A DNA stretch of 64,000 nt from Minisyncoccota bacterium (GTDB lineage Bacteria; Patescibacteriota; Minisyncoccia; JAHIHE01; JAGLIN01), in the NCBI GenBank assembly GCA_041661265.1, contig JBAZUT010000003.1, positions 15,191 through 79,190 on the forward strand, read 5' to 3'. This document shows, one piece after another, positions 2,575 through 41,535 of the stretch (position 1 is the stretch's first letter; each line of letters begins with the position of its first letter). Under the pieces are notes generated by a model. The model was not told where the DNA came from. It did not search any database and worked only from the letters and a program-made list of their open reading frames with translations. A program made the position numbers and the translations under genes.

Positions 2575-2758
2575 GTAATTAAAAATATGAACTATTCAGC
2601 AGCACAATCAAATGAAGTAAGGATGACCAAAAAAGTTGGTCATGTTGTGGTTGTGGCAATTAAAAACCTACTAGTAAGGTAATTTGCTTTTGGCTTGATT
2701 AAGAGGAAACTACGTTAAGAATAAGGCTAAAAGCAAACTACTCGAAGTAGGTTTTTTG
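2575..2758 (+). ncRNA. candidate small RNA, copy A of a 4-member paralogous family (about 185 nt; ends approximate)
   Basis: Promoter TTGACA(2541-2546)-16-TAGACT(2563-2568). Core 'cttgattaagagg' is related to the cores of copies B, C and D. The distal stem acctact/agtaggt is followed by a T-run at 2751-2758. Confidence 0.4.
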
Positions 2759-3175
2759 TTTAATTATATATTTTCCCTGACTGATTGTATTGCTGCGAAG
2801 AATGCAGTTGTTAGTGAAAATATAGCTGCACATTGAGATCGCGATGATTTCCCATAAAGAGATCGTTAAAAAATGGCGTCAATCAAGCCGGAGGTTTTGA
2901 GCGAAATGCTACTACAATTGCGTTTTGCGGCAGGAAATATCTTTCAAGAAAGAAGCTTTGAATTTTCAGAGCAACACCATGGATCCCGCAACAACCGAAT
3001 CAATCTCAATTGTTTTCAGCCGTCACTAATCAATGCGGGATATGAAGAATAAAAAAAATATCTTCATATCCCAATCTCTCCCTTGTTTTTTTAAAACAGA
3101 TTTCTGAACAGTGGGATCAGAAATTTGCGTTAAAAAGATCAAAACGCGGTAAATTAAAAAAAAGGAGGATAAAAA

Positions 3176-3322
3176 ATGGTGTATTTTGCACAGGACGAGT
3201 CCGTAATAAACGGAATAGTGGACTCAAAAAAGAGCGAAGCCGACAAAGACAAGTATGGATTGCGCGATGAGCAATTCGATGTCGCAAGAAACACTGGCAA
3301 GGCACAAGAGTTTGGGGAATAG
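3176..3322 (+). CDS. small hydrophilic protein (48 aa), paralog of the 3513 ORF
   Basis: Strong RBS AAGGAGG 7 nt upstream. N-terminus MVYFAQDES and a G-L-R-DEQ motif are shared with the 3513 ORF. Missing from the ORF track because it is under 60 aa. Confidence 0.4.
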   Translation: MVYFAQDESVINGIVDSKKSEADKDKYGLRDEQFDVARNTGKAQEFGE

Positions 3323-3512
3323 GACTAAATATTCCCCGCTCGTATTTTAGAAAGTTTGTTTTTGTCCGCATGAAGCGAGCAGAAATAAGCTCTATAAAAG
3401 ACGGGCTTAAACAGGATGATAAGCATGCCATCACGGCGCTTATACTTTCACGACTTGGAAAAAAAGCCAAGCACGGCAAGATCCTTGAAAATAATAGAAA
3501 AGAGGGAAAAAT

Positions 3513-3635
3513 ATGGTAAGTTTTGCAAAAGAAGGTTCAAAAATAACCGCGTTTGAAATAGAAAAAGAAAGCAGAGAGCGTTTTGGAAGAAAGGATGAGC
3601 AGAACATAAACGGTAATTTTGAAAGAGGAAATTAA
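3513..3635 (+). CDS. small hydrophilic protein (40 aa), paralog of the 3176 ORF
   Basis: RBS AGAGGGA. MVSFAKEGS...GRKDEQ aligns with the 3176 ORF. The ATG overlaps the stop of an upstream 49-aa ORF (3371-3519). Confidence 0.35.
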   Translation: MVSFAKEGSKITAFEIEKESRERFGRKDEQNINGNFERGN

Positions 3636-3655
3636 ATAAACCATATAAACAATAA

Positions 3656-3692
3656 GGGAAGCGGAAACTTGACCGCTTCCCGGCCATTTTTC
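3656..3692 (+). terminator. intrinsic terminator
   Basis: Perfect 9-bp stem gggaagcgg/ccgcttccc, then 'ggccatttttc'. Confidence 0.55.
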
Positions 3693-4050
3693 ATATGATC
3701 CCGTCCATGCTTATAAGGTTTACAGGCACTGACGGGCTTAAAATGAAAAGCCCTTACACAAATAAGAGAGGTTAAACAACTAAAAAAAGTTGGGTGCTAT
3801 CCGACCAACATTCGGAAAAAGTTCCTGCCTCTCTTATACCAATCATCTGCGTGATAATTGCGAACCTATCCCTGTTTTAATGATTTAAACCGGAGATAGG
3901 CTCACAAAGCCGAGAGTTGCGGGGCATGGCCAAACATGCCATGAAGAAGTGAAAGCACTTTATTTCTTAAGGGAATTATTTTCCGACCCCAGCTCTAAAC
4001 ACTGATAACATTCCGTTATCGAACAAAATAAACAGAAAGAGGAGATAAAC

Positions 4051-4215
4051 GTGGCAAATAAAGACAAAGCAAATGAAGACACCGGTAATACCGATGAGAG
4101 AAAAAATAAGATCGAACACAACAATGAGGTTCATGAGAAAATGAAAAATAAAGATGCCGCCGGAATAATCGGCGACAAGTTCGTGGATGATCACTATGTA
4201 CCGAGGTGCTATTGA
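4051..4215 (+). CDS. small K/N/E-rich protein (54 aa, GTG start)
   Basis: RBS AAGAGGAG 8 nt upstream of GTG. Followed by the terminator at 4215-4238 (gaggaca/tgtcctc plus T7). Confidence 0.35.
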   Translation: MANKDKANEDTGNTDERKNKIEHNNEVHEKMKNKDAAGIIGDKFVDDHYVPRCY

Positions 4216-4242
4216 GGACAAAATGTCCTCATTTTTTTATGC

Positions 4243-4270
4243 TTGACATTATTATAAAATGTATTATACT
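4243..4270 (+). promoter_or_regulatory. sigma70-like promoter for the leader and LeuA/CimA-family gene
   Basis: TTGACA(4243-4248)-16-TATACT(4265-4270). Confidence 0.45.
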
Positions 4271-4290
4271 GAAACAAGTTAATAAAAAAT

Positions 4291-4362
4291 ATGACCGGAA
4301 ATCATAATACAATCATCAGCATTATCATTAACCGCGGGGCTTTGTCCTGTCGGCTATTTTGA
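4291..4362 (+). CDS. putative isoleucine-rich attenuation leader peptide (23 aa: MTGNHNTIISIIINRGALSCRLF)
   Basis: Five Ile codons within six consecutive codons (atc atc agc att atc att). First ATG after an in-frame stop. Lies in the 200-nt leader of a branched-chain pathway gene. Confidence 0.4.
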   Translation: MTGNHNTIISIIINRGALSCRLF

Positions 4363-4390
4363 TGCAAAAAAAATAGCACACAAGATAAAG

Positions 4391-4416
4391 TCCCGGGAAA
4401 GCGCCCGGGATTTTAA
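4391..4416 (+). terminator. attenuator-type terminator in the leader
   Basis: Stem tcccggg/cccggga followed by 'ttttaaatt', about 30 nt after the leader stop and about 50 nt before the structural gene RBS. Confidence 0.4.
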
Positions 4417-4468
4417 ATTATCAAGAAATAAAAATAAATATCAGAACAAAAAAAGGAGGAATAGAACA

Positions 4469-5974
4469 TTGACATTTAGAAAAGAAATAAAAATTCTGGA
4501 CACAACGCTTAGAGACGGAGAACAGACTCCGGGAATATCATTCAGCAAGGAAAGCAAGATGGCCATTGCTGAAAATCTTGATCTGTTGGGAGTCGATGTC
4601 ATCGAGGTCGGATCTGTTATAACCTCGGAAGGCGAGCGGGAATTCGCGAAAGAGATCACTAAAAAGAAACGCGAAGGAAAAATAAAAGCCGAGCTTTGCA
4701 CATATTCCAGGATAAGGAAAGAAGATATCGACTATGCCAAAGAATGCGGTCTTGATTCCGTTCATCTTGTGGTTCCGGTTTCCGATCTGCATATAACTGA
4801 AAAGTTGAAGCAGGACAGGAAAACGGTCATGAATACGGCAATTGAAATGGTGAAGTACGCCAAATCTCTCGGGCTGACAGTCGAACTCAGCGGAGAAGAC
4901 GCTTCGCGCGCGGATATGGTATTCCTGAAGGAATTATATAATGCGGGAATAGACGCAGGCGCAGACAGGCTGTGTTTCTGCGATACTGTCGGTATTCTGA
5001 CTCCGGAAAGGACATACGAGATATTTCTTGAGCTTTCAAAGCTTCGCGCCCCGATCAGTATACATTGCCATAATGATTTCGGAATGGCAACGGCTAATAC
5101 TGTCGCGGCACTCCGGGCTGGAGCCGCACAGGCCCACGTAACGATCAACGGGATCGGAGAGCGCGCAGGAAACACTTCTCTTGAAGAGGTTGTAATGACT
5201 CTCTATTCTTTATATAAGAAAGAGACGAATATAAAGACGAGAAACCTGTATAAATCCTCAAGGCTTGTCAGCAGGCTTAGCGGGATACCCGTTGCTCTCA
5301 ATAAGGCGATAGTCGGCGGAAATTCGTTCACGCATGAAGCGGGAATACACGTGCATGGCCTGAAGGCGAACACTGCGACATACGAGCCGATCACGCCGGA
5401 GCTTGTCGGACGCGAAAGAAGGATCCTTCTTGGAAAGCATGCTGGCAGAGCATCTGTCGAACTCGCAATGAGGGAACTTGGACTTACCGCGGATGACAAG
5501 CAGATAAATGAGATAACAAAGCGGGTAAAGGAGGTTGGAGACAAAGGCAAGCGCGTAACTGATGCCGATTTCGAAAAGATCGCCGAAGTGGTGCTCGGCA
5601 TATACAAAGAAGCAAAAGTCAAGCTCGAAGAACTGACGGTCGTTTCCGGGAATACAGTGATGCCGACGGCGTCGATCAAGATCCGCGTGAACGGAAAGCA
5701 GATCGTCGAGGCCGGAGTCGGCACAGGTCCCGTAGATGCGGCAAGAAATGCATTGGAAAAGGCTCTGAGTGCGATCGGAGACATCCGGCTTGAGGAATAT
5801 CATGTGGATGCCATCGAAGGCGGCACTAATGCGTTGGTCGAGGTCTGGGTGAAACTCAGCAAAGACGGAAAAACCATAACGGCGAAAGGCGCCAGGACGG
5901 ATATTATCATGGCTTCAGTCGAAGCGATGCTGGAAGGCATAAACCGCCTTTTGAACGGCAAGAATAAAGAATAA
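4469..5974 (+). CDS. 2-isopropylmalate synthase / (R)-citramalate synthase family (LeuA/CimA), TTG start
   Basis: HMGL-like N-terminus 'ILDTTLRDGEQTPG' and 'HCHNDFGMATANTVAALRAGA', plus a C-terminal LeuA-dimerisation-like region. RBS AGGAGG. The Ile-rich leader favours CimA. Confidence 0.8.
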   Translation: MTFRKEIKILDTTLRDGEQTPGISFSKESKMAIAENLDLLGVDVIEVGSVITSEGEREFAKEITKKKREGKIKAELCTYSRIRKEDIDYAKECGLDSVHLVVPVSDLHITEKLKQDRKTVMNTAIEMVKYAKSLGLTVELSGEDASRADMVFLKELYNAGIDAGADRLCFCDTVGILTPERTYEIFLELSKLRAPISIHCHNDFGMATANTVAALRAGAAQAHVTINGIGERAGNTSLEEVVMTLYSLYKKETNIKTRNLYKSSRLVSRLSGIPVALNKAIVGGNSFTHEAGIHVHGLKANTATYEPITPELVGRERRILLGKHAGRASVELAMRELGLTADDKQINEITKRVKEVGDKGKRVTDADFEKIAEVVLGIYKEAKVKLEELTVVSGNTVMPTASIKIRVNGKQIVEAGVGTGPVDAARNALEKALSAIGDIRLEEYHVDAIEGGTNALVEVWVKLSKDGKTITAKGARTDIIMASVEAMLEGINRLLNGKNKE

Positions 5975-6062
5975 TAAAGAAATAGAGAGCTTAAACGTAA
6001 GCTCCTTTTTTATTTTCTCAAAAAGTGATATTCTTAGTGTGTGAATAATTAATCATAAAAAT

Positions 6063-7211: not shown

Positions 7212-7266
7212 AGCAGTTTTGCCGGGTGCTATTGACACGCGATTTCAGTCATGGTAATCTGAACTC

Positions 7267-7416
7267 AGTAAATAATAATCGTTATATGATAACACTGAAA
7301 AACCAAGCAATCTGTTGTTGTTGCGCTTTCTAAGAAGGCTGGTTTTATAGTGTTATGTAAATTATAATAAGATTTAGATGATACTGTGAAGCTGGTCTTT
7401 TTGGACCGGTTTTTTA
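7267..7416 (+). ncRNA. candidate small RNA, copy C of the paralogous family (about 150 nt)
   Basis: Promoter TTGACA(7232-7237)-17-TAATCT. Core 'ctttctaagaaggctggttttatagtgttatg' is homologous to copy B 'ccttccaataagataggtcgttttgtgatgag'. Terminator ggtct/ggacc plus T6 at 7394-7415. Confidence 0.45.
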
Positions 7417-7447: not shown

Positions 7448-7567
7448 ATGCAGGAAGATAATGATAAGATCAATAAAAACAAAAATAAACAGGAGAATGA
7501 AGACGGATCAAAAAAAGATCTGAGAAAAAGAAAAAGGGGTTCGATCGCAGGTCCCGGCGGATGCTAG
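7448..7567 (+). CDS. small K-rich peptide (39 aa), speculative
   Basis: RBS AGAGGTG, then MQEDNDKINKNKNKQENEDGSKKDLRKRKRGSIAGPGGC. Composition resembles the 4051 ORF. Confidence 0.2.
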   Translation: MQEDNDKINKNKNKQENEDGSKKDLRKRKRGSIAGPGGC

Positions 7568-7596
7568 GACCGCTGAATCCGTCGAAAGAAACGTTT

Positions 7597-7713
7597 GCCG
7601 AGGTGGCCGAGAAGGATAGGCGGACTTCGTCTTGCTGAAAAGCCAGACTATGTCCCGCCAAAGGCAGAAGACAGCAGATCTTCAAAACACAGGTTCGAAT
7701 CCTGTCCTTGGCT
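7597..7713 (+). other. tRNA-like element, non-canonical (117 nt). Canonical 3' half, Leu-like 5' half, about 45-nt insertion between them
   Basis: Exact T-arm acagg-TTCGAAT-cctgt (7689-7705). The 3' acceptor strand ccttggc pairs with gccgagg at 7597-7603, allowing one G.U. 'tg' (U8, G9) and a D-arm gcc-gagaaGGata-ggc follow, like tRNA-Leu 'GCCGAGGTGG'. A stem-loop gaaga-cagcaga-tcttc (7667-7683) sits five nt before the T-arm. Confidence 0.35.
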
Positions 7714-10331: not shown

Positions 10332-11435
10332 ATGATCGGGGAACTGCAAAAATTGATAAGATTTAAGACGGTTGTCGGAAATCACAAAGAGAACGGCAAG
10401 GCTTTGAAGTGGGTCAGATCCGAATTAGCCGGTCTGGATGTCGATGTGAGGGAATTCGAGTCGGATGGATATCGATCGATCGTCATTACGACGCAAAAGA
10501 CTATGAAGCCTAAAGTTTTTCTGGCGGCTCACATGGATGTTGCCAAGGCATCAAATGATCTGTTTATTCCCAGGATATCCGGCGATAAATTGTTTGGACG
10601 AGGCGCATATGATATGAAATTCGCGATCGCTTGTTATTTGAGGTTATTGAAGGAGTTGAAGAAAGATCTTTTGAAATATGATCTGGGAATCATGATCACA
10701 TCAGATGAAGAGTGTGGAGGGAAGAACGGGGCCGGATATCTTCTTGGTAAAGGATACGGATGCGACGCTGTTGTGCTTCCCGATGGAAGCGAGAATTGGA
10801 AAATTGAAAAAGCTTCGAAAGGCGTGTGGTGTTTTGTCGTAAAAAGCTATGGAAAGTCGGCTCATCCGTCTATGCCGTGGAAAGGTATAAATGCGATCGA
10901 AGCATTGCTGGATTATTTCAGCGAGCTGCAGAAACCGTTCAAAACGGAACCGTGCGGAGATCCGCTGCATATCCATTCAACGATCGATATAAATGAATTC
11001 AATACGGGCCGTACGGGGGATAATCTTCCGGATTATGCGGAAGCAATGGCCGATATCTTCTTCATAAGCGGGAAAGAATATGAAAAGATCGTCAGAATGG
11101 AAAAAAGCATCAGAAAGAAATATTCCGGAATAAAGCTCATGACGACTATTTATAATCCGAGCGTAAGGATAAATATAAAAAACAGATTTGCGGATGAATT
11201 TTACCGGATCGCGCGGAATCTGTATGGCATAAGGAAAGAGGCGATGTTTACCCATGGAACATCCGACGCTCATTATTTTGTGGAAAAGAATATATCGGTT
11301 ATTGAAACGCGGCCAAAGGGCGGTGATTTTCATGGCGATGGAGAATGGATAGATCTTGTTGATCTGGAAAGGTTCTATCAGGTCCTGAAAGAATTTACGG
11401 TAAGAATGTCCGCGGTGGATAATGAGAAGATTTGA
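10332..11435 (+). CDS. M20 family peptidase (ArgE/DapE-like deacylase)
   Basis: 'AAHMDVA', 'GRGAYDMK', 'SDEECGG'. Confidence 0.65.
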   Translation: MIGELQKLIRFKTVVGNHKENGKALKWVRSELAGLDVDVREFESDGYRSIVITTQKTMKPKVFLAAHMDVAKASNDLFIPRISGDKLFGRGAYDMKFAIACYLRLLKELKKDLLKYDLGIMITSDEECGGKNGAGYLLGKGYGCDAVVLPDGSENWKIEKASKGVWCFVVKSYGKSAHPSMPWKGINAIEALLDYFSELQKPFKTEPCGDPLHIHSTIDINEFNTGRTGDNLPDYAEAMADIFFISGKEYEKIVRMEKSIRKKYSGIKLMTTIYNPSVRINIKNRFADEFYRIARNLYGIRKEAMFTHGTSDAHYFVEKNISVIETRPKGGDFHGDGEWIDLVDLERFYQVLKEFTVRMSAVDNEKI

Positions 11436-11487
11436 CAATATATTAAAATAGATATAAATTGACAATATAGAACTATATATATGAAAA

Positions 11488-11603
11488 TACATTCAATAAA
11501 CAGCTATTTCTTTTATTTTAGCCTTCCAATAAGATAGGTCGTTTTGTGATGAGGATAAAATAAAGAAAAAAGCAAAATGGCCTATCGGGGGCTGTTTTTT
11601 GTT
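11488..11603 (+). ncRNA. candidate small RNA, copy B of the paralogous family (about 115 nt)
   Basis: Two TTGACA -35 elements at 11432 and 11459. Core 'atttcttttattttagccttccaataagataggtcgttttgtgatgagg' is about 75% identical to copy D. The 3' hairpin is followed by T6 at 11595-11600. Confidence 0.5.
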
Positions 11604-11706: not shown

Positions 11707-11988
11707 ATGATAGCGGGAAAGCCCAAAGATGAGATCGATGAGATGATCTATGCACTTCGCGAGATCTGCCCGGACGTCGGAATAATAAGAAAAAATGGAA
11801 AAATTATTATGACGGGAAATGGGATCATGCGCGTAAAAAAAACAGTGAAGATATTATCCGGAATAGAGAGGATCGAATCCATCAATAAATATGGCACACG
11901 GTGCATACTTGAGATGAAGGGCGACGAGGCGATCATAATGAATGTTGCCAGCAATGAACGAAGTGAGGAATTATGCGTTATAGCGTAA
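11707..11988 (+). CDS. hypothetical small protein (93 aa)
   Basis: Strong RBS AAGGAGG. First gene of a 4-gene small-protein cassette. Confidence 0.5.
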   Translation: MIAGKPKDEIDEMIYALREICPDVGIIRKNGKIIMTGNGIMRVKKTVKILSGIERIESINKYGTRCILEMKGDEAIIMNVASNERSEELCVIA

Positions 11989-13091: not shown

Positions 13092-13555
13092 AAACAAAGA
13101 CGTGGTACAAAAGGCAGGCTTCAGGCTTGCCTTATTTATTATAACAAAAACCACCGGCGTTAGCCGGTGTGTGCGTTTAGAGCGATAGCTCTTGTGTAAC
13201 TGTAATATAGTAATTGCCATATTATCATTCTAGGTCGTGTCATCCTGAACTTGTTTCAGGATCTTCGTTACATTTCGTAAGAGTGATGTAGTAAAGCAAT
13301 AACGAAATAAAACGAGGATTCCGGATCCCTCCGGAGGCGGGCAGGCAAGTCCGGAATGACAAACAGGCAGATAATCGATTAAGACAGATCAGAAACTACA
13401 TAAAAAACCAAGATGTAAACAGAGTTGAATTAGCACAACAGACGTTATGGAAAAAACAGGCATAGCCTGCCAAGCAGATACCCTCGGCGTCAAGCCGGGG
13501 GTATGTTCATTATTTTCGACATTGACACATGCCTGCATTGTGCTATAATGGCAAA

Positions 13556-13683
13556 GTAAGCTCAAATATCATGAAATACGGTATAAATAACAATTTCTTC
13601 TTTTTTAGCTATAACTTCCTTAAAAGATAGGTTATTTTGTGATAATTCAGATGAAAATAGCCTGTCGAAGAGGCTGTTTTTTA
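13556..13683 (+). ncRNA. candidate small RNA, copy D of the paralogous family (about 128 nt)
   Basis: Consensus promoter TTGACA(13522-13527)-16-TATAAT(13544-13549). Core 'atttcttcttttttagctataacttccttaaaagataggttattttgtgataa'. Terminator agcct/aggct plus T6 at 13659-13682. Confidence 0.55.
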
Positions 13684-13854
13684 ATGATATAAAGAACCAT
13701 TCAGTTTTCCACGCGATGGAAGATTGAATGGTAAGTTAAATCTTGCCAATGTGCGCCTCGGTGGCTGAAAAGAGCGCCGGCATGAAACACCGGAATATGC
13801 GGATCAAAATTCCGCCCGAGGCAAAAAAATTAAAAAAATACAGGAGGAACCGAA

Positions 13855-14541
13855 TTGATACAAGGTTTGAAGATTTTCAATGACCCGGAAAAGCTTCCTC
13901 AGGGCCCTAACGAGCAAGGATTGGCATTGCGGTCGGAACTCGTAAAGAAAATAACATGTTTTGTTTTGGGTCCCATGGGAACCAATATGGAACAGGCCTG
14001 CGAGCAATGGATTCGGGAGATGGGAATCGAAAACAAAACAGAAATTGTTCTTTGTTCGACCCCGGAAGAGTCGATCGAAAAAGCAAGAAGTGTTACCAGT
14101 GAGGGGCATGTTGCAACATTTTGGACATGCGCAGTCTATAATTGCCTGTGCAATGTTTTTTTCCAAAACCCGGATACGCTCACGTTCTTTGCGGAGAAGG
14201 TGATGATGCTGGATGAAATGCAGCTTGCGACGCGGCGTGAAAAGATACATGAGATCAGAGACGGGATCCTTCCCGATTCGTGGATCATTGCATCGCACCC
14301 CTCTCCGGCGCCCCTGCTCAATGAAGTAAAGTGCAGCGTCAAGCTGACTACAAGCAATGCCAAGGCGGCAGAATTGTGCAGTGCGCTCGAGGCGGATGCG
14401 TGCATTACGACAGAAAGCGCAAGAAAGCTGAATGGACTCGAAACACTCCATGTTTTTGGAAGCCCGAAAATGGTTTTTTTTGCGGGGATCACGACTCACG
14501 GAGTGAGGGTTGTTTCAAAGGCATATAATGAGGCGAAATAA
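13855..14541 (+). CDS. prephenate dehydratase-like (PDT-fold) protein without ACT domain. Possibly a prephenate decarboxylase-like paralog. TTG start
   Basis: RBS AGGAGG. 'CFVLGPMGTNMEQA' is a PDT N-terminal motif and 'IASHPSPAPL' follows. The TRF-type motif is degenerate. Confidence 0.45.
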   Translation: MIQGLKIFNDPEKLPQGPNEQGLALRSELVKKITCFVLGPMGTNMEQACEQWIREMGIENKTEIVLCSTPEESIEKARSVTSEGHVATFWTCAVYNCLCNVFFQNPDTLTFFAEKVMMLDEMQLATRREKIHEIRDGILPDSWIIASHPSPAPLLNEVKCSVKLTTSNAKAAELCSALEADACITTESARKLNGLETLHVFGSPKMVFFAGITTHGVRVVSKAYNEAK

Positions 14542-14641: not shown

Positions 14642-16156
14642 ATGAAAATTGCTATTATCGGCGCGAACGGAGATATGGGAAAATTCCTGACCAGATTTCT
14701 GTCGCTACTGGGAGAGGTCAAGCCCATATCCAGGAATGTCTCGACTAAAGAAGACTGGCGCGAGGCATGGACTGCGGACGTGATCTGGCTTAGCATTCCG
14801 CGGGATGCGATCGATGGCCTGCTCGAGGGGAAGAAATTAGACAAGAGGCAGCTTATGGTCGATATCTGTTCGATCAAGAGAAATTTATCAGAGGTTATAA
14901 AGAAAACGGGAGCATCACATTTGTCTTTGCATCCTTTGCATGGTCCAAATATTCCCTTGAACGGTCAAAGATGGGCCGTCATAGACGGTTCAAGAAGGAG
15001 TGAACGGAATCAAAACGCCAAGAGAACTCTGGAGTTTCTGAAAGATCAGGGCATACAGCTTTTGGGCGCCAAATCCGAAGACTATCATGATTTTATGCTG
15101 GGATTAACTCTAAGTGTGCCGGAGCTGCTTACTGTCGTGATCGAGGAGCTGAAAAACGAATATATCAAAAATTGCAAAGAGATCAAGCCGACGAGGAGCG
15201 AGATGAATAAATGGTCTGTCCCGGCGTCCAATGCAATGTATGGGGCTTGTCATCATGTGATAAACAGCACGGCTTACTGGCTCAGGAAGGAGATTCTTTG
15301 TAATGCGCACAAGGACCTCTTGAAAAGCTCCAGGAAGGCTTTCTTAAGGCTTTCAAAATTAACCGATCAGGATATAAAGAAAAAATTCAAAGAACAGGAA
15401 AGAGATATAAAAACATTGTCGCCGGAAGAAAGGATCAAGATCAGATTGTGGATCGAGAATTGGTTCTCGGATGCGACGAAGTCCATATTTATGGAAAAGG
15501 ACTATTATAAGACAAAACCGGAGATCGCCATACAGTTCCAGGAGAACATTTCGGAAATATTTCCGGCTTCGACCGTGAAGCTTAGGGTCGGGATCCATGG
15601 CATAAAGGGGTGCTTTACGCATGAATCTATTCTTCGTTTTTGCGAAGAGGCCAAGGTCGATGAGACAAAACTGGATCTCAAGTTTCTTGTAACTGCCGAG
15701 AATGTTCTGCGCGAGCTGGATGAAGGCAAGATCGACAGGGGAATATTTGCGATGGCAAATTCCGGATCGGGGGCCTATGTTACAAGCATGGATCCCATGG
15801 GAAAATACACGTATAAGGTCATGGCTGTCTATGGGATGAAGATCATGCAGTGTCTTCTCTCGTATCCAAGCGAAAAAATAGAAAATATAAATGAAGTTTT
15901 CGGCCATCCGCAGGCCGTCAGCCAGTGCAAAAGAACCCTTGCAGAAAAATACCCATATCTGAAAATAACCTACGGAAAAGACGACGACGATACCGCTTTA
16001 TGCGCAAAGAGGATAGCGGAAGGCGAGCTTCCGAGAACGACAGCGACACTTGCGTCTCAGGTTGCGGCTAAGCTTTATAATTTGAACATATTGTCTTACA
16101 ATATGCACCATGATCCTTTCAATACGACAACTTTCTTGATTGTAAAAAAGCGGTAA
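14642..16156 (+). CDS. fused prephenate dehydrogenase (TyrA) and prephenate dehydratase (PDT) protein
   Basis: N-terminus 'MKIAIIGANGDMGKF' (NAD fold) with 'SLHPLHGP'. C-terminal PDT domain 'GIHGIKGCFTHE...FGHPQAVSQC...NTTTFLIV'. Confidence 0.7.
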   Translation: MKIAIIGANGDMGKFLTRFLSLLGEVKPISRNVSTKEDWREAWTADVIWLSIPRDAIDGLLEGKKLDKRQLMVDICSIKRNLSEVIKKTGASHLSLHPLHGPNIPLNGQRWAVIDGSRRSERNQNAKRTLEFLKDQGIQLLGAKSEDYHDFMLGLTLSVPELLTVVIEELKNEYIKNCKEIKPTRSEMNKWSVPASNAMYGACHHVINSTAYWLRKEILCNAHKDLLKSSRKAFLRLSKLTDQDIKKKFKEQERDIKTLSPEERIKIRLWIENWFSDATKSIFMEKDYYKTKPEIAIQFQENISEIFPASTVKLRVGIHGIKGCFTHESILRFCEEAKVDETKLDLKFLVTAENVLRELDEGKIDRGIFAMANSGSGAYVTSMDPMGKYTYKVMAVYGMKIMQCLLSYPSEKIENINEVFGHPQAVSQCKRTLAEKYPYLKITYGKDDDDTALCAKRIAEGELPRTTATLASQVAAKLYNLNILSYNMHHDPFNTTTFLIVKKR

Positions 16157-16223: not shown

Positions 16224-16790
16224 TTATTTTTCGACAGCGAGAAAACTCGTGAAATTGAATTTCAGGTCCTGAACGCCCTTTTCCATGATCATGAGCCCAA
16301 AAAGGGTGGCGCAGCTTTCGGGAGCAAGTATTGCAGTTTCATTGCCAAGCTTTCCTTCCGAAAGATCCCTTGCCGCCTTGGCCGTATCTTCCGTTTCTTT
16401 GAGATCTGCTTTTGACCATTGTTTTTTCAGATACATTTTGCATTGTTTCAGCGCCTGATCGTGAGACGCGATGCTTTTGATGTCATCCTTGGAAACGCCT
16501 TTTTTTGTCAGCAGGCAATGTATCACCGGGATCTCGAATATGTCCTTGATCTTGAAAATATATCTGCTCATTGCATATATGCTTTCGATAACTACTCCAC
16601 CATTCGAATTCTCGATTGGAAAAATGCCAAGGTCGATCTTCTTGTTCTCGAGCGAATTAAGGACTTTCTCGACCGAAATCAGATACACCAGTTCGTACTC
16701 GGTTATTTGATTCTTGCGGCAATATTCCACTGCGGCTTGCTCCGAAAAACTGCCTTCATCTCCCGAAATGCCGATCTTTATTTTTTCCAT
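16224..16790 (-). CDS. prephenate dehydratase (PDT domain only, 188 aa)
   Basis: 'IGISGDEGSFSEQAA', 'FPIENSNGGVV', 'SHDQALKQC', 'NFTSFLAV'. Confidence 0.7.
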   Translation of the reverse strand: MEKIKIGISGDEGSFSEQAAVEYCRKNQITEYELVYLISVEKVLNSLENKKIDLGIFPIENSNGGVVIESIYAMSRYIFKIKDIFEIPVIHCLLTKKGVSKDDIKSIASHDQALKQCKMYLKKQWSKADLKETEDTAKAARDLSEGKLGNETAILAPESCATLFGLMIMEKGVQDLKFNFTSFLAVEK

Positions 16791-41310: not shown

Positions 41311-41535
41311 ACAAAAAAAGCAACAATAAAAGTGCAATATTGACAAAATCCCGAAATTTGATATAATTATATTACAAAATGTGCAGTTTAATTATAATAA
41401 GCACATATTTCGTCTTTACGAAGCGAATAAAAGGTCGTAAGTTATAAAAAAGCTGCTGTGATTTACAGAAAGAATAATCAGTTAAACAGTGATTCCAAGC
41501 AATTTTGGCTGGAAGCTAATGAAGGAAAAAACAGA

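Follow-up and report, generated by a model that had tools for sequence, protein, structure and literature searches.

A Probable Isoleucine-Specific Leader-Peptide Attenuator Upstream of an Archaeal-Type cimA Gene in a Paceibacterota Bacterium

Introduction

In enterobacteria, the leader attenuators ilvL, ivbL, and thrL precede ilvGMEDA, ilvBN, and thrABC, respectively; the codon run of ilvL mixes Leu, Val, and Ile codons, and that of thrL mixes Thr and Ile codons. In the comparative-genomics literature on delta-proteobacteria, Ile-specific T-box leaders are reported to lie before leuA-like or cimA genes. The ilv–leu operon of Staphylococcus aureus carries a Leu-rich attenuator peptide (PMC5794164, excerpt). 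This report concerns the region 4243–4468 of a 64,000-nucleotide stretch of contig JBAZUT010000003.1 (assembly GCA_041661265.1), hereafter the window, in which a promoter, a short open reading frame (ORF) with a run of Ile codons, and a GC-rich hairpin precede a gene of the LeuA/CimA family. A preliminary description, made from the letters of the window, had proposed Ile-specific attenuation of a citramalate synthase (CimA) gene. Comparison with related sequences and RNA folding indicate that 4243–4468 is probably an Ile-specific ribosome-mediated transcription attenuator of a single-gene cimA unit.

Organization and Conservation of the cimA Leader

The predicted promoter is present at 4243–4270 as TTGACA and TATACT hexamers separated by 16 nt; it matches the consensus at 11 of 12 positions and is the top sigma-70 match in a 3-kb scan. 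The terminator of the preceding small-ORF unit (4213–4238) insulates the cimA unit from upstream transcription. Transcription would start at about 4277, which gives a leader of approximately 192 nt up to the TTG start codon at 4469. The ATG of the leader ORF lies 20 nt past the −10 box, and the 5′ end before this ATG would be about 13 nt long. The remaining elements of the preliminary description also stand. The 23-codon ORF at 4291–4362 (MTGNHNTIISIIINRGALSCRLF) has five Ile codons in six positions; the GC hairpin with UUUU noted at 4391–4414 extends to a 12-bp stem, in which the core UCCCGGG/CCCGGGA (4391–4397/4404–4410) has a 6-bp GC core and the U tract occupies 4411–4414 (hairpin T; Table 1); and the ribosome-binding site AGGAGG of the structural gene is found at 4454–4459. 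The terminator downstream of cimA (5987–6010) makes cimA a single-gene unit.

Stretches of six codons with at least five Ile codons occur six times in the six frames of the 64-kb window, against 1.5 in Markov simulations. By itself, the Ile run is just mildly unusual and therefore cannot carry the case for an attenuator alone.

What decides the case is conservation. The leader is found in every relative from the Candidate Phyla Radiation (CPR) that reaches the region (L083, L084, L089, L091, L085, and L087, and L081 and L082 in part). In this comparison, which comprises four distinct but near-identical sequences, nucleotide identity across the segment 4291–4414 is 95–97% (L083) and 85–89% (L085), whereas in the same relatives identity is 80% for cimA DNA, 52% for cimA third positions, and 63–65% for other intergenic DNA. 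Because conservation of the leader far exceeds that of both cimA coding DNA and other intergenic DNA, the leader stands above chance. A pattern scan of metagenomes yielded one new leader variant (L087, the fourth distinct version), two duplicates, and eight chance matches, and no copy of the leader in another gene context. The −35 and −10 hexamers are unchanged in the four distinct relatives, with 11 of the 16 spacer positions variable, and the segment 4454–4471 has one variable position across the four.

Substitutions within the leader ORF are distributed unevenly. Codons 2, 3, and 7 vary non-synonymously. All variants of the Ile codons are synonymous (codon 8, ATC/ATA/ATT; codons 9 and 12, ATC to ATT; at least four substitutions); with a silent-change expectation in the Ile run of about 0.2 per substitution, the joint chance is roughly 0.002. 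The Ile-only character of the regulatory codons, which the preliminary description had stressed, is thus kept through synonymous changes, and in L085 the change T7I adds a sixth Ile codon at codon 7. From codon 14 to the stop codon, all 33 nt are unchanged, pointing to a constraint that acts on the RNA fold rather than on the peptide. As read from the aligned leaders, this substitution pattern is what an attenuator leader would be expected to show.

A separate stretch, AAGGAGGAATAGAACATTGACATT (4450–4476; the Shine-Dalgarno (SD) sequence, the spacer, and the first cimA codons), is nearly invariant across six relatives, in contrast to the variable codons that directly follow. Translation initiation at the TTG of cimA may therefore be under constraint.

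Alternative RNA Folds and a Model of Attenuation

The leader RNA folds more stably than shuffled sequences (z = −3.2; 1 of 200 shuffles as good). As presupposed by the attenuator layout of the preliminary description, two mutually exclusive pairs of structures are predicted: an antiterminator (AT) that encloses a smaller hairpin B competes with an extended hairpin (A-ext) combined with T (Table 1). A-ext is the minimum free energy (MFE) structure of transcripts ending at 4352–4388 and is the first fold during transcription. The 5′ half of its outer stem lies within Ile codons 10–13, and this stem is incompatible with hairpin B. A-ext is followed by U-rich CUAUUUU and was flagged in a terminator scan (pause- or terminator-like). 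For transcripts ending at 4394–4412, AT + B is the MFE structure (ΔG −32.8 to −34.1 kcal/mol; P = 1.0). Once transcription has passed the 3′ arm of T (from position 4418 onward), A-ext + T is favored by about 5 kcal/mol, and the full-length MFE structure is A-ext + T (−37.6 to −38.9 kcal/mol vs. −32.8 kcal/mol for AT + B).

The changes found in relatives are one-sided, and both folds stay compatible with them. The pairs of AT are kept at 100%, including L085, in which A4380G and A4389G still pair and all changes in 4366–4391 are compatible. Pairing in hairpin T is retained, with one G·U pair replaced by G-C in L085; A-ext remains 100% paired, and all pairs of hairpin B are kept.

In simulations with a bound ribosome, an A site at codon 11 or earlier leaves AT possible, whereas an A site at codons 13–21 abolishes it. 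The findpath barrier for the transition from A-ext to AT drops from 10.9 to 5.5–6.0 kcal/mol when the Ile-codon strand is masked, which in the model would correspond roughly to seconds vs. milliseconds. In computation, a ribosome positioned on the Ile codons favors the antiterminator. The cimA SD sequence AGGAGG is unpaired in all predicted folds and an anti-SD sequence is missing; translational control of cimA by SD sequestration is ruled out on these grounds.

Translation of the leader, termination at T, and the direction of the response to Ile are inferred. Translation is supported indirectly by the purely synonymous changes in the Ile run and by the four sister units described below, which keep their frames through 3-nt indels and share the geometry without an SD sequence. 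The following sequence of events is proposed. Transcription would start about 7 nt past the −10 box, and the 23-codon leader would be translated from its short A/U-rich 5′ end without an SD sequence. A-ext (4319–4365) would fold first as the RNA emerges; if A-ext is undisturbed, or if translation does not occur, T (4386–4415) would form and transcription would stop ahead of cimA. When Ile-tRNA is scarce, a ribosome would stall on codons 8–13 (4312–4329) and cover the 5′ strand of the A-ext outer stem. This stall would free hairpin B (4353–4377), the proposed nucleation point of the antiterminator, from which AT (4332–4350:4380–4397) would zip. AT would then capture the 5′ arm of T, and RNA polymerase would read into cimA. 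When Ile is plentiful, the ribosome would move through 4332–4362 and mask the 5′ strand of AT while T is made, and T would form.

Assessment of the Attenuation Model

Several points weigh against this model. An SD sequence is missing before the leader ATG at 4291, as the preliminary description had noted; this weakness is not specific to the cimA leader, because four sister units described below also lack an SD sequence, which makes its absence a feature common to all five rather than a fault of one. Only 4 U follow T, compared with 6–7 at other terminators in the window. Among the four leader sequences, no double compensatory change was found, and covariation gives no statistical support. With a simulated ribosome at the leader stop codon (A site at codons 22–24), the AT core re-forms behind it (P = 0.6–1.0), and the Ile-replete outcome therefore depends on timing. 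When full-length RNA is folded at equilibrium with ribosome masks, no mask position removes the GC core of T. Because equilibrium folds always retain T, the argument for attenuation is kinetic; AT is visible by folding of growing transcripts, not by equilibrium folding of the full-length leader. In addition, no ilv or leu partner genes were found in the window and its 10-kb flanks on each side (~84 kb in total), which makes the metabolic purpose of an Ile-controlled cimA less obvious than the preliminary description assumed. Amino-acid biosynthesis is usually absent from Patescibacteria, which are regarded as auxotrophs (PMC12455944). When ORFs resembling leaders ahead of ilvB and leuA were mutated in Streptomyces coelicolor, they did not behave as classical attenuators (PMC1262725), and these failures are a warning for a purely computational call of an attenuator at cimA.

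The leader could alternatively be an RNA switch that senses a metabolite, a protein, or a tRNA rather than the ribosome, with the short ORF being incidental. The extreme nucleotide conservation of 4330–4397, which resembles that of a riboswitch core, and the missing SD sequence ahead of the ORF are in keeping with such a switch, which is nonetheless considered unlikely. Rfam scans of the whole window at gathering scores gave no match except one tRNA (hence none to the Leu, His, Thr, Trp, or Phe leader families or the T-box), and at a permissive threshold (E ≤ 10) only noise-level matches were obtained (His_leader, 22.9 bits vs. 49 required), with no match to the T-box; no known RNA family or T-box was thus found by these scans. 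The leader also has no Stem-I-like domain. Moreover, the Ile codons vary only synonymously, and a metabolite aptamer would not account for the runs of other amino acids that four sister units have at the same position, with frames kept by in-frame indels.

The same switch could also work with reversed logic, whereby a ribosome that has completed the leader and sits on or close to the stop codon would release 4332–4344 for pairing with 4386–4397 and promote read-through, and a stall on the Ile codons would leave hairpin A in place and favor termination. Expression of cimA would then be turned down by Ile starvation, or would report translational capacity. The re-formation of the AT core with the A site at codons 22–24 agrees with this logic, as does full-length equilibrium folding, in which A, B, and T all persist under stalls at Ile8 or Ile9. 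However, such a response would be physiologically senseless for a committed Ile-only enzyme behind Ile codons, masking of the Ile-codon strand lowers the barrier to AT, and a helix bridging a bound ribosome would be costly both sterically and entropically. The neighboring Phe leaders, in addition, follow the classical scheme of 1:2, 2:3, and 3:4 pairings, in which region 2 spans the stop codon. Reversed logic is therefore rated as decidedly improbable.

An arrangement with no conditional control, in which a strong promoter is combined with a structured 5′ untranslated region whose hairpins stabilize or process the mRNA and the Ile run is an A/T-rich by-product, would fit the A/T-rich nature of Ile codons, the 1.5 Ile-rich hexacodons expected by chance per 64 kb, and the short U tract of T, but is hardly credible given that stability does not call for two folds that exclude each other, are conserved to the same degree, and lie close in energy, that conservation is far above that of other 5′ regions, that the run specifies the end product of the route of the downstream enzyme, and that the design recurs with other amino acids.

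Identity and Origin of the cimA Gene

Citramalate synthase catalyzes the committed step of the Ile-only route. The 501-aa protein encoded downstream of the leader contains the Pfam domains PF00682, PF22617, and PF08502 (a catalytic barrel and a C-terminal LeuA_dimer regulatory domain). It passes the NCBIfam models NF002085 (604 bits vs. a cut-off of 517) and TIGR02090 (504 vs. 485), which operate at subfamily level only, and is below the cut-offs of the bacterial CimA equivalogs TIGR00977 (243 vs. 450) and NF042433 (273 vs. 950). Its identity with the characterized Methanocaldococcus jannaschii protein MJ1392, the reference sequence of which was confirmed as UniRef100_Q58787, (R)-citramalate synthase CimA, is 56% across 493 aa. 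The rank order of NCBIfam scores is identical for the 501-aa protein, MJ1392, and Methanoperedens orthologs; the comparison covered MJ1392 and Methanosarcinales orthologs. The closest relatives are all from Methanosarcinales, with Candidatus Methanoperedens first (73–77% identity), and the orthologs in Methanoperedens carry the name citramalate synthase at JGI and in part of NCBI. In a sequence search of the PDB, CimA could not be told apart from LeuA or homocitrate synthase. The 501-aa protein is probably an archaeal-type citramalate synthase ortholog, for which condensation of pyruvate and acetyl-CoA is predicted, which is in keeping with the identification of the LeuA homolog as CimA in the preliminary description. 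The Ile attenuator, if functional, is an independent, regulation-based support for a role of this LeuA homolog in Ile synthesis.

The host is, as judged from its genes, a CPR (Paceibacterota) bacterium. The window encodes FtsA, FtsZ, DprA, ComEC, LytR-CpsA-Psr, and a bacterial-type topoisomerase I, as well as trigger factor, ClpP, peptidyl-tRNA hydrolase, signal peptidase, TrmD, and a full-length NusA. The last of these has a 100% identical counterpart in a Candidatus Paceibacterota metagenome-assembled genome (MAG), followed by matches from Patescibacteria and Pacebacteria. Because the host is bacterial, sigma-70 promoters and hairpin terminators apply to the window.

Other assignments of the DNA were considered and rejected. 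An archaeal host was suggested by the CimA relatives, all of which are Methanosarcinales, and by an oversized tRNA-like gene that might contain an intron; the promoter would then be read as a TATA box, and hairpin termination would be doubtful. This is ruled out by the genes for division, competence, NusA, trigger factor, and ClpP, and by the identity of NusA to that of a Paceibacterota MAG. A Borg or other Methanoperedens element is ruled out by a GC content of 41%, the presence of just three trivial tandem repeats, and the bacterial gene content. Chimeric assembly is ruled out because identical bacterial neighbors flank cimA in six independent assemblies.

In a neighbor-joining tree of loci L001–L080 (rooted on M. 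jannaschii CimA; no bootstraps), the CPR CimA proteins (relatives at 92–97% protein identity) form one clade that is sister to the genus Methanoperedens inside Methanoperedenaceae, with the CimA of which the 501-aa protein shares about 76% identity. Because the CPR clade is nested in Methanoperedenaceae, cimA appears to have been transferred fairly recently from a Methanoperedenaceae archaeon to a CPR bacterium. The leader is missing from Methanoperedens cimA, which has only a spacer of about 45 nt behind the upstream gene, and the attenuator would therefore have been added after the inter-domain transfer.

Other Leader Units in the Window

Four further units built on this plan, with Val, Cys, Tyr/Phe, and Phe runs, occur in the vicinity, such that five are located within about 12 kb (Table 1). 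Each sister unit has a near-consensus promoter, an ATG 18–24 nt past the −10 box, no SD sequence, a codon run, and a hairpin followed by U6. Because these units recur with other amino acids and are conserved in relatives with their codon runs retained, the lineage seems to use leader-peptide control generally.

The Val/branched-chain amino acid (BCAA) leader (...GHVVVVAIKNLLVR) is kept in L083 and L085, with 3-nt indels that remain in frame; the region behind it (2780–4215) contains hydrophilic ORFs of 40–59 aa with strong SD sequences and no Pfam match, and no ilv genes. The Cys leader is retained in L085 and L086 as the variants MNKTLKNQSICCCCAF and MMHTQENQAICCCVL. The Tyr/Phe leader, which is paralogous to the Phe unit, lies upstream of an ATG at 11707 and is followed by four ORFs of 93–114 aa with no Pfam match. 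The Phe leader has a perfect TTGACA-16-TATAAT promoter and is located upstream of a TTG at 13855. Its antiterminator (AGGUUAUUUU:AAAAUAGCCU) and terminator (AAAAUAGCCU...AGGCUGUUUUUU) both lie after the ORF, and a diverged copy (MNYISNNIFFFFDCLSR) is found at L086 6423–6565, ahead of a different, 108-aa gene. In both aromatic leaders, region 2 lies over the stop codon, and comparison of the two reveals a compensatory double change (U-A to C-G) in the 2:3 helix. The Rfam Phe_leader family does not match the Phe units of the window at gathering score.

Hairpin B of the Ile leader (4353–4377; GCUAUUUU...AAAAUAGC) is similar to the 2:3 antiterminator in the Phe unit (13628–13667; GGUUAUUUU...AAAAUAGCC), and both are located at the stop codon. 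The Ile and Phe leaders may, on this likeness, share an origin by duplication. A further promoter-proximal ORF (MCSLIIISTYF...) at 41380 was rejected as a leader, as ordinary genes follow it.

Additional features were observed near the Cys and Phe leaders. An SD-led 39-codon ORF (7449–7568) after the Cys leader ends in ...RKRGSIAGPGGC and shares its C-terminus with L085. It is followed by a 117-nt tRNA-like gene (7597–7713; Rfam tRNA, 43.7 bits) that has canonical acceptor and T arms and is degenerate in L085; ARAGORN made no call by default and, with introns allowed, a doubtful call of tRNA-Gly(ccc) with a 22-nt intron and a long extra arm. Three genes with a prephenate dehydratase (PDT) domain are present (13855–14541, 14642–16156, and 16224–16790 on the minus strand), one of which encodes a 504-aa fusion protein whose N-terminal half has no annotation. 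L086 instead has PDT and prephenate dehydrogenase genes on the minus strand, and the content of the aromatic branch therefore differs between close relatives.

TABLE 1. Positions of the predicted elements of the cimA unit and of the sister leader units in the window.
Feature	Position	Strand	Description
Sigma-70-type promoter	4243..4270	+	−35 TTGACA 4243–4248; 16-nt spacer; −10 TATACT 4265–4270
Leader-peptide ORF	4291..4362	+	23 codons, MTGNHNTIISIIINRGALSCRLF; ATG 4291, TGA 4360–4362
Ile codon run	4312..4329	+	AUC AUC AGC AUU AUC AUU = I I S I I I (codons 8–13)
Hairpin A-ext (predicted anti-antiterminator)	4319..4365	+	Core A 4332–4340/4344–4353; outer stem 4319–4324/4360–4365; ΔG −18.3
Antiterminator AT (predicted)	4332..4397	+	4332–4350 pairs with 4380–4397; encloses hairpin B; ties up the entire 5′ arm of T
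Hairpin B	4353..4377	+	GCUAUUUU / AAAAUAGC; ΔG −7.1; overlaps the leader stop codon
Intrinsic-terminator-like hairpin T	4386..4415	+	UAAAGUCCCGGG aaagcg CCCGGGAUUUUA; 12-bp stem 4386–4397/4404–4415; ΔG −19.3
cimA SD sequence	4454..4459	+	AGGAGG
Structural gene cimA	4469..5974	+	501-aa archaeal-type (R)-citramalate synthase homolog; TTG start; HMGL-like, HCS_D2, LeuA_dimer domains
Terminator after cimA	5987..6010	+	GAGCUUAAACGUAAGCUC then U6
Terminator of preceding small-ORF unit	4213..4238	+	UGAGGACAAAAUGUCCUCA then U7; 8-bp stem; kept in relatives
Val/BCAA leader	promoter–terminator 2540–2765; ORF 2587–2682		MNYSAAQSNEVRMTKKVGHVVVVAIKNLLVR; downstream small ORFs
Cys leader	promoter–terminator 7233–7416; ORF 7286–7333		MITLKNQAICCCCAF; downstream small ORF, tRNA-like element, 224-aa protein
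Tyr/Phe leader	promoter–terminator 11432–11600; ORF 11481–11537		MKIHSINSYFFYFSLPIR; downstream four small ORFs
Phe leader	promoter–terminator 13522–13686; ORF 13571–13630		MKYGINNNFFFFSYNFLKR; downstream prephenate-dehydratase-domain gene

Implications

The mechanism is classical; the unusual features are the host, the descent of the regulated gene from archaea, and the grouping of five attenuators in one island. It is striking that, in a phylum of presumed auxotrophs, this lineage has an archaeal-derived cimA and at least five leader-peptide sensors. Full-text literature searches returned nothing that ties Patescibacteria to leader-peptide attenuation or to citramalate synthase. Tentatively, and with less confidence than is placed in the attenuator itself, a CPR lineage can be envisaged to have acquired cimA from a Methanoperedenaceae archaeon, which may have been its host or a neighbor, and then to have built or reused an Ile attenuator. 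Together with the Val/BCAA, Cys, Tyr/Phe, and Phe units, this attenuator would belong to a set of five amino-acid-specific attenuators in about 12 kb, most of which would act on small or unannotated genes and not on complete pathways. If so, these reduced bacteria would monitor the charging of individual tRNAs to steer a partial, possibly host-complementing amino-acid metabolism, and attenuators could be assembled quickly on foreign genes. A leader added after the transfer would offer a dated example of how fast a switch fits a new gene. The design shared by the five leaders, with a short 5′ end and no SD sequence, bears on translation initiation in this group. Because the mechanism is textbook, the regulatory prediction is directly testable.

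Comparison with Known Systems

The cimA leader resembles ilvL, ivbL, and thrL in its order of elements, namely a promoter, a short ORF with a codon run, an alternative antiterminator and terminator, and then a biosynthetic gene. The charging of Ile-tRNA would be read by Ile codons, as it is in thrL and ilvL. The cimA leader differs from ilvL and thrL in that its run specifies Ile only and in that it would control cimA by itself, not an ilv or thr operon. Compared with enterobacterial leaders, it lacks an SD sequence, has a 5′ end of only about 13 nt before the ATG, and has no sequence or Rfam similarity to them. In place of the 1:2, 2:3, 3:4 ladder, its predicted antiterminator is a long helix, the 5′ strand of which self-folds (hairpin A) and which encloses the nucleating hairpin B.

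The reported delta-proteobacterial T-box leaders are alike in that an Ile-specific RNA sensor marks a LeuA homolog as a citramalate synthase (the pyruvate route to Ile). However, a T-box reads uncharged tRNA directly, whereas the cimA leader would be translated and no T-box is detected in it. The protein matches MJ1392 and Methanoperedens CimA in its three Pfam domains and in its profile of NCBIfam scores; unlike the archaeal genes, the cimA of the window lies in a CPR chromosome with a bacterial promoter, an SD sequence, and a predicted attenuator.

The Phe units of the window (MKYGINNNFFFFSYNFLKR and MKIHSINSYFFYFSLPIR) share the layout of pheL/pheA of gamma-proteobacteria (PMC3082878, excerpt). 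They concern another amino acid and other genes, and bear on the Ile leader as paralogous evidence only. The candidate ilvB leaders of Actinobacteria were likewise predicted from short ORFs with codon runs overlapping terminator hairpins (PMC1262725). These leaders and that of S. aureus belong to other phyla and have mixed or Leu codon runs, and they resemble the cimA leader as cases of leader-peptide control of BCAA genes outside Proteobacteria (PMC1262725; PMC5794164, excerpt).

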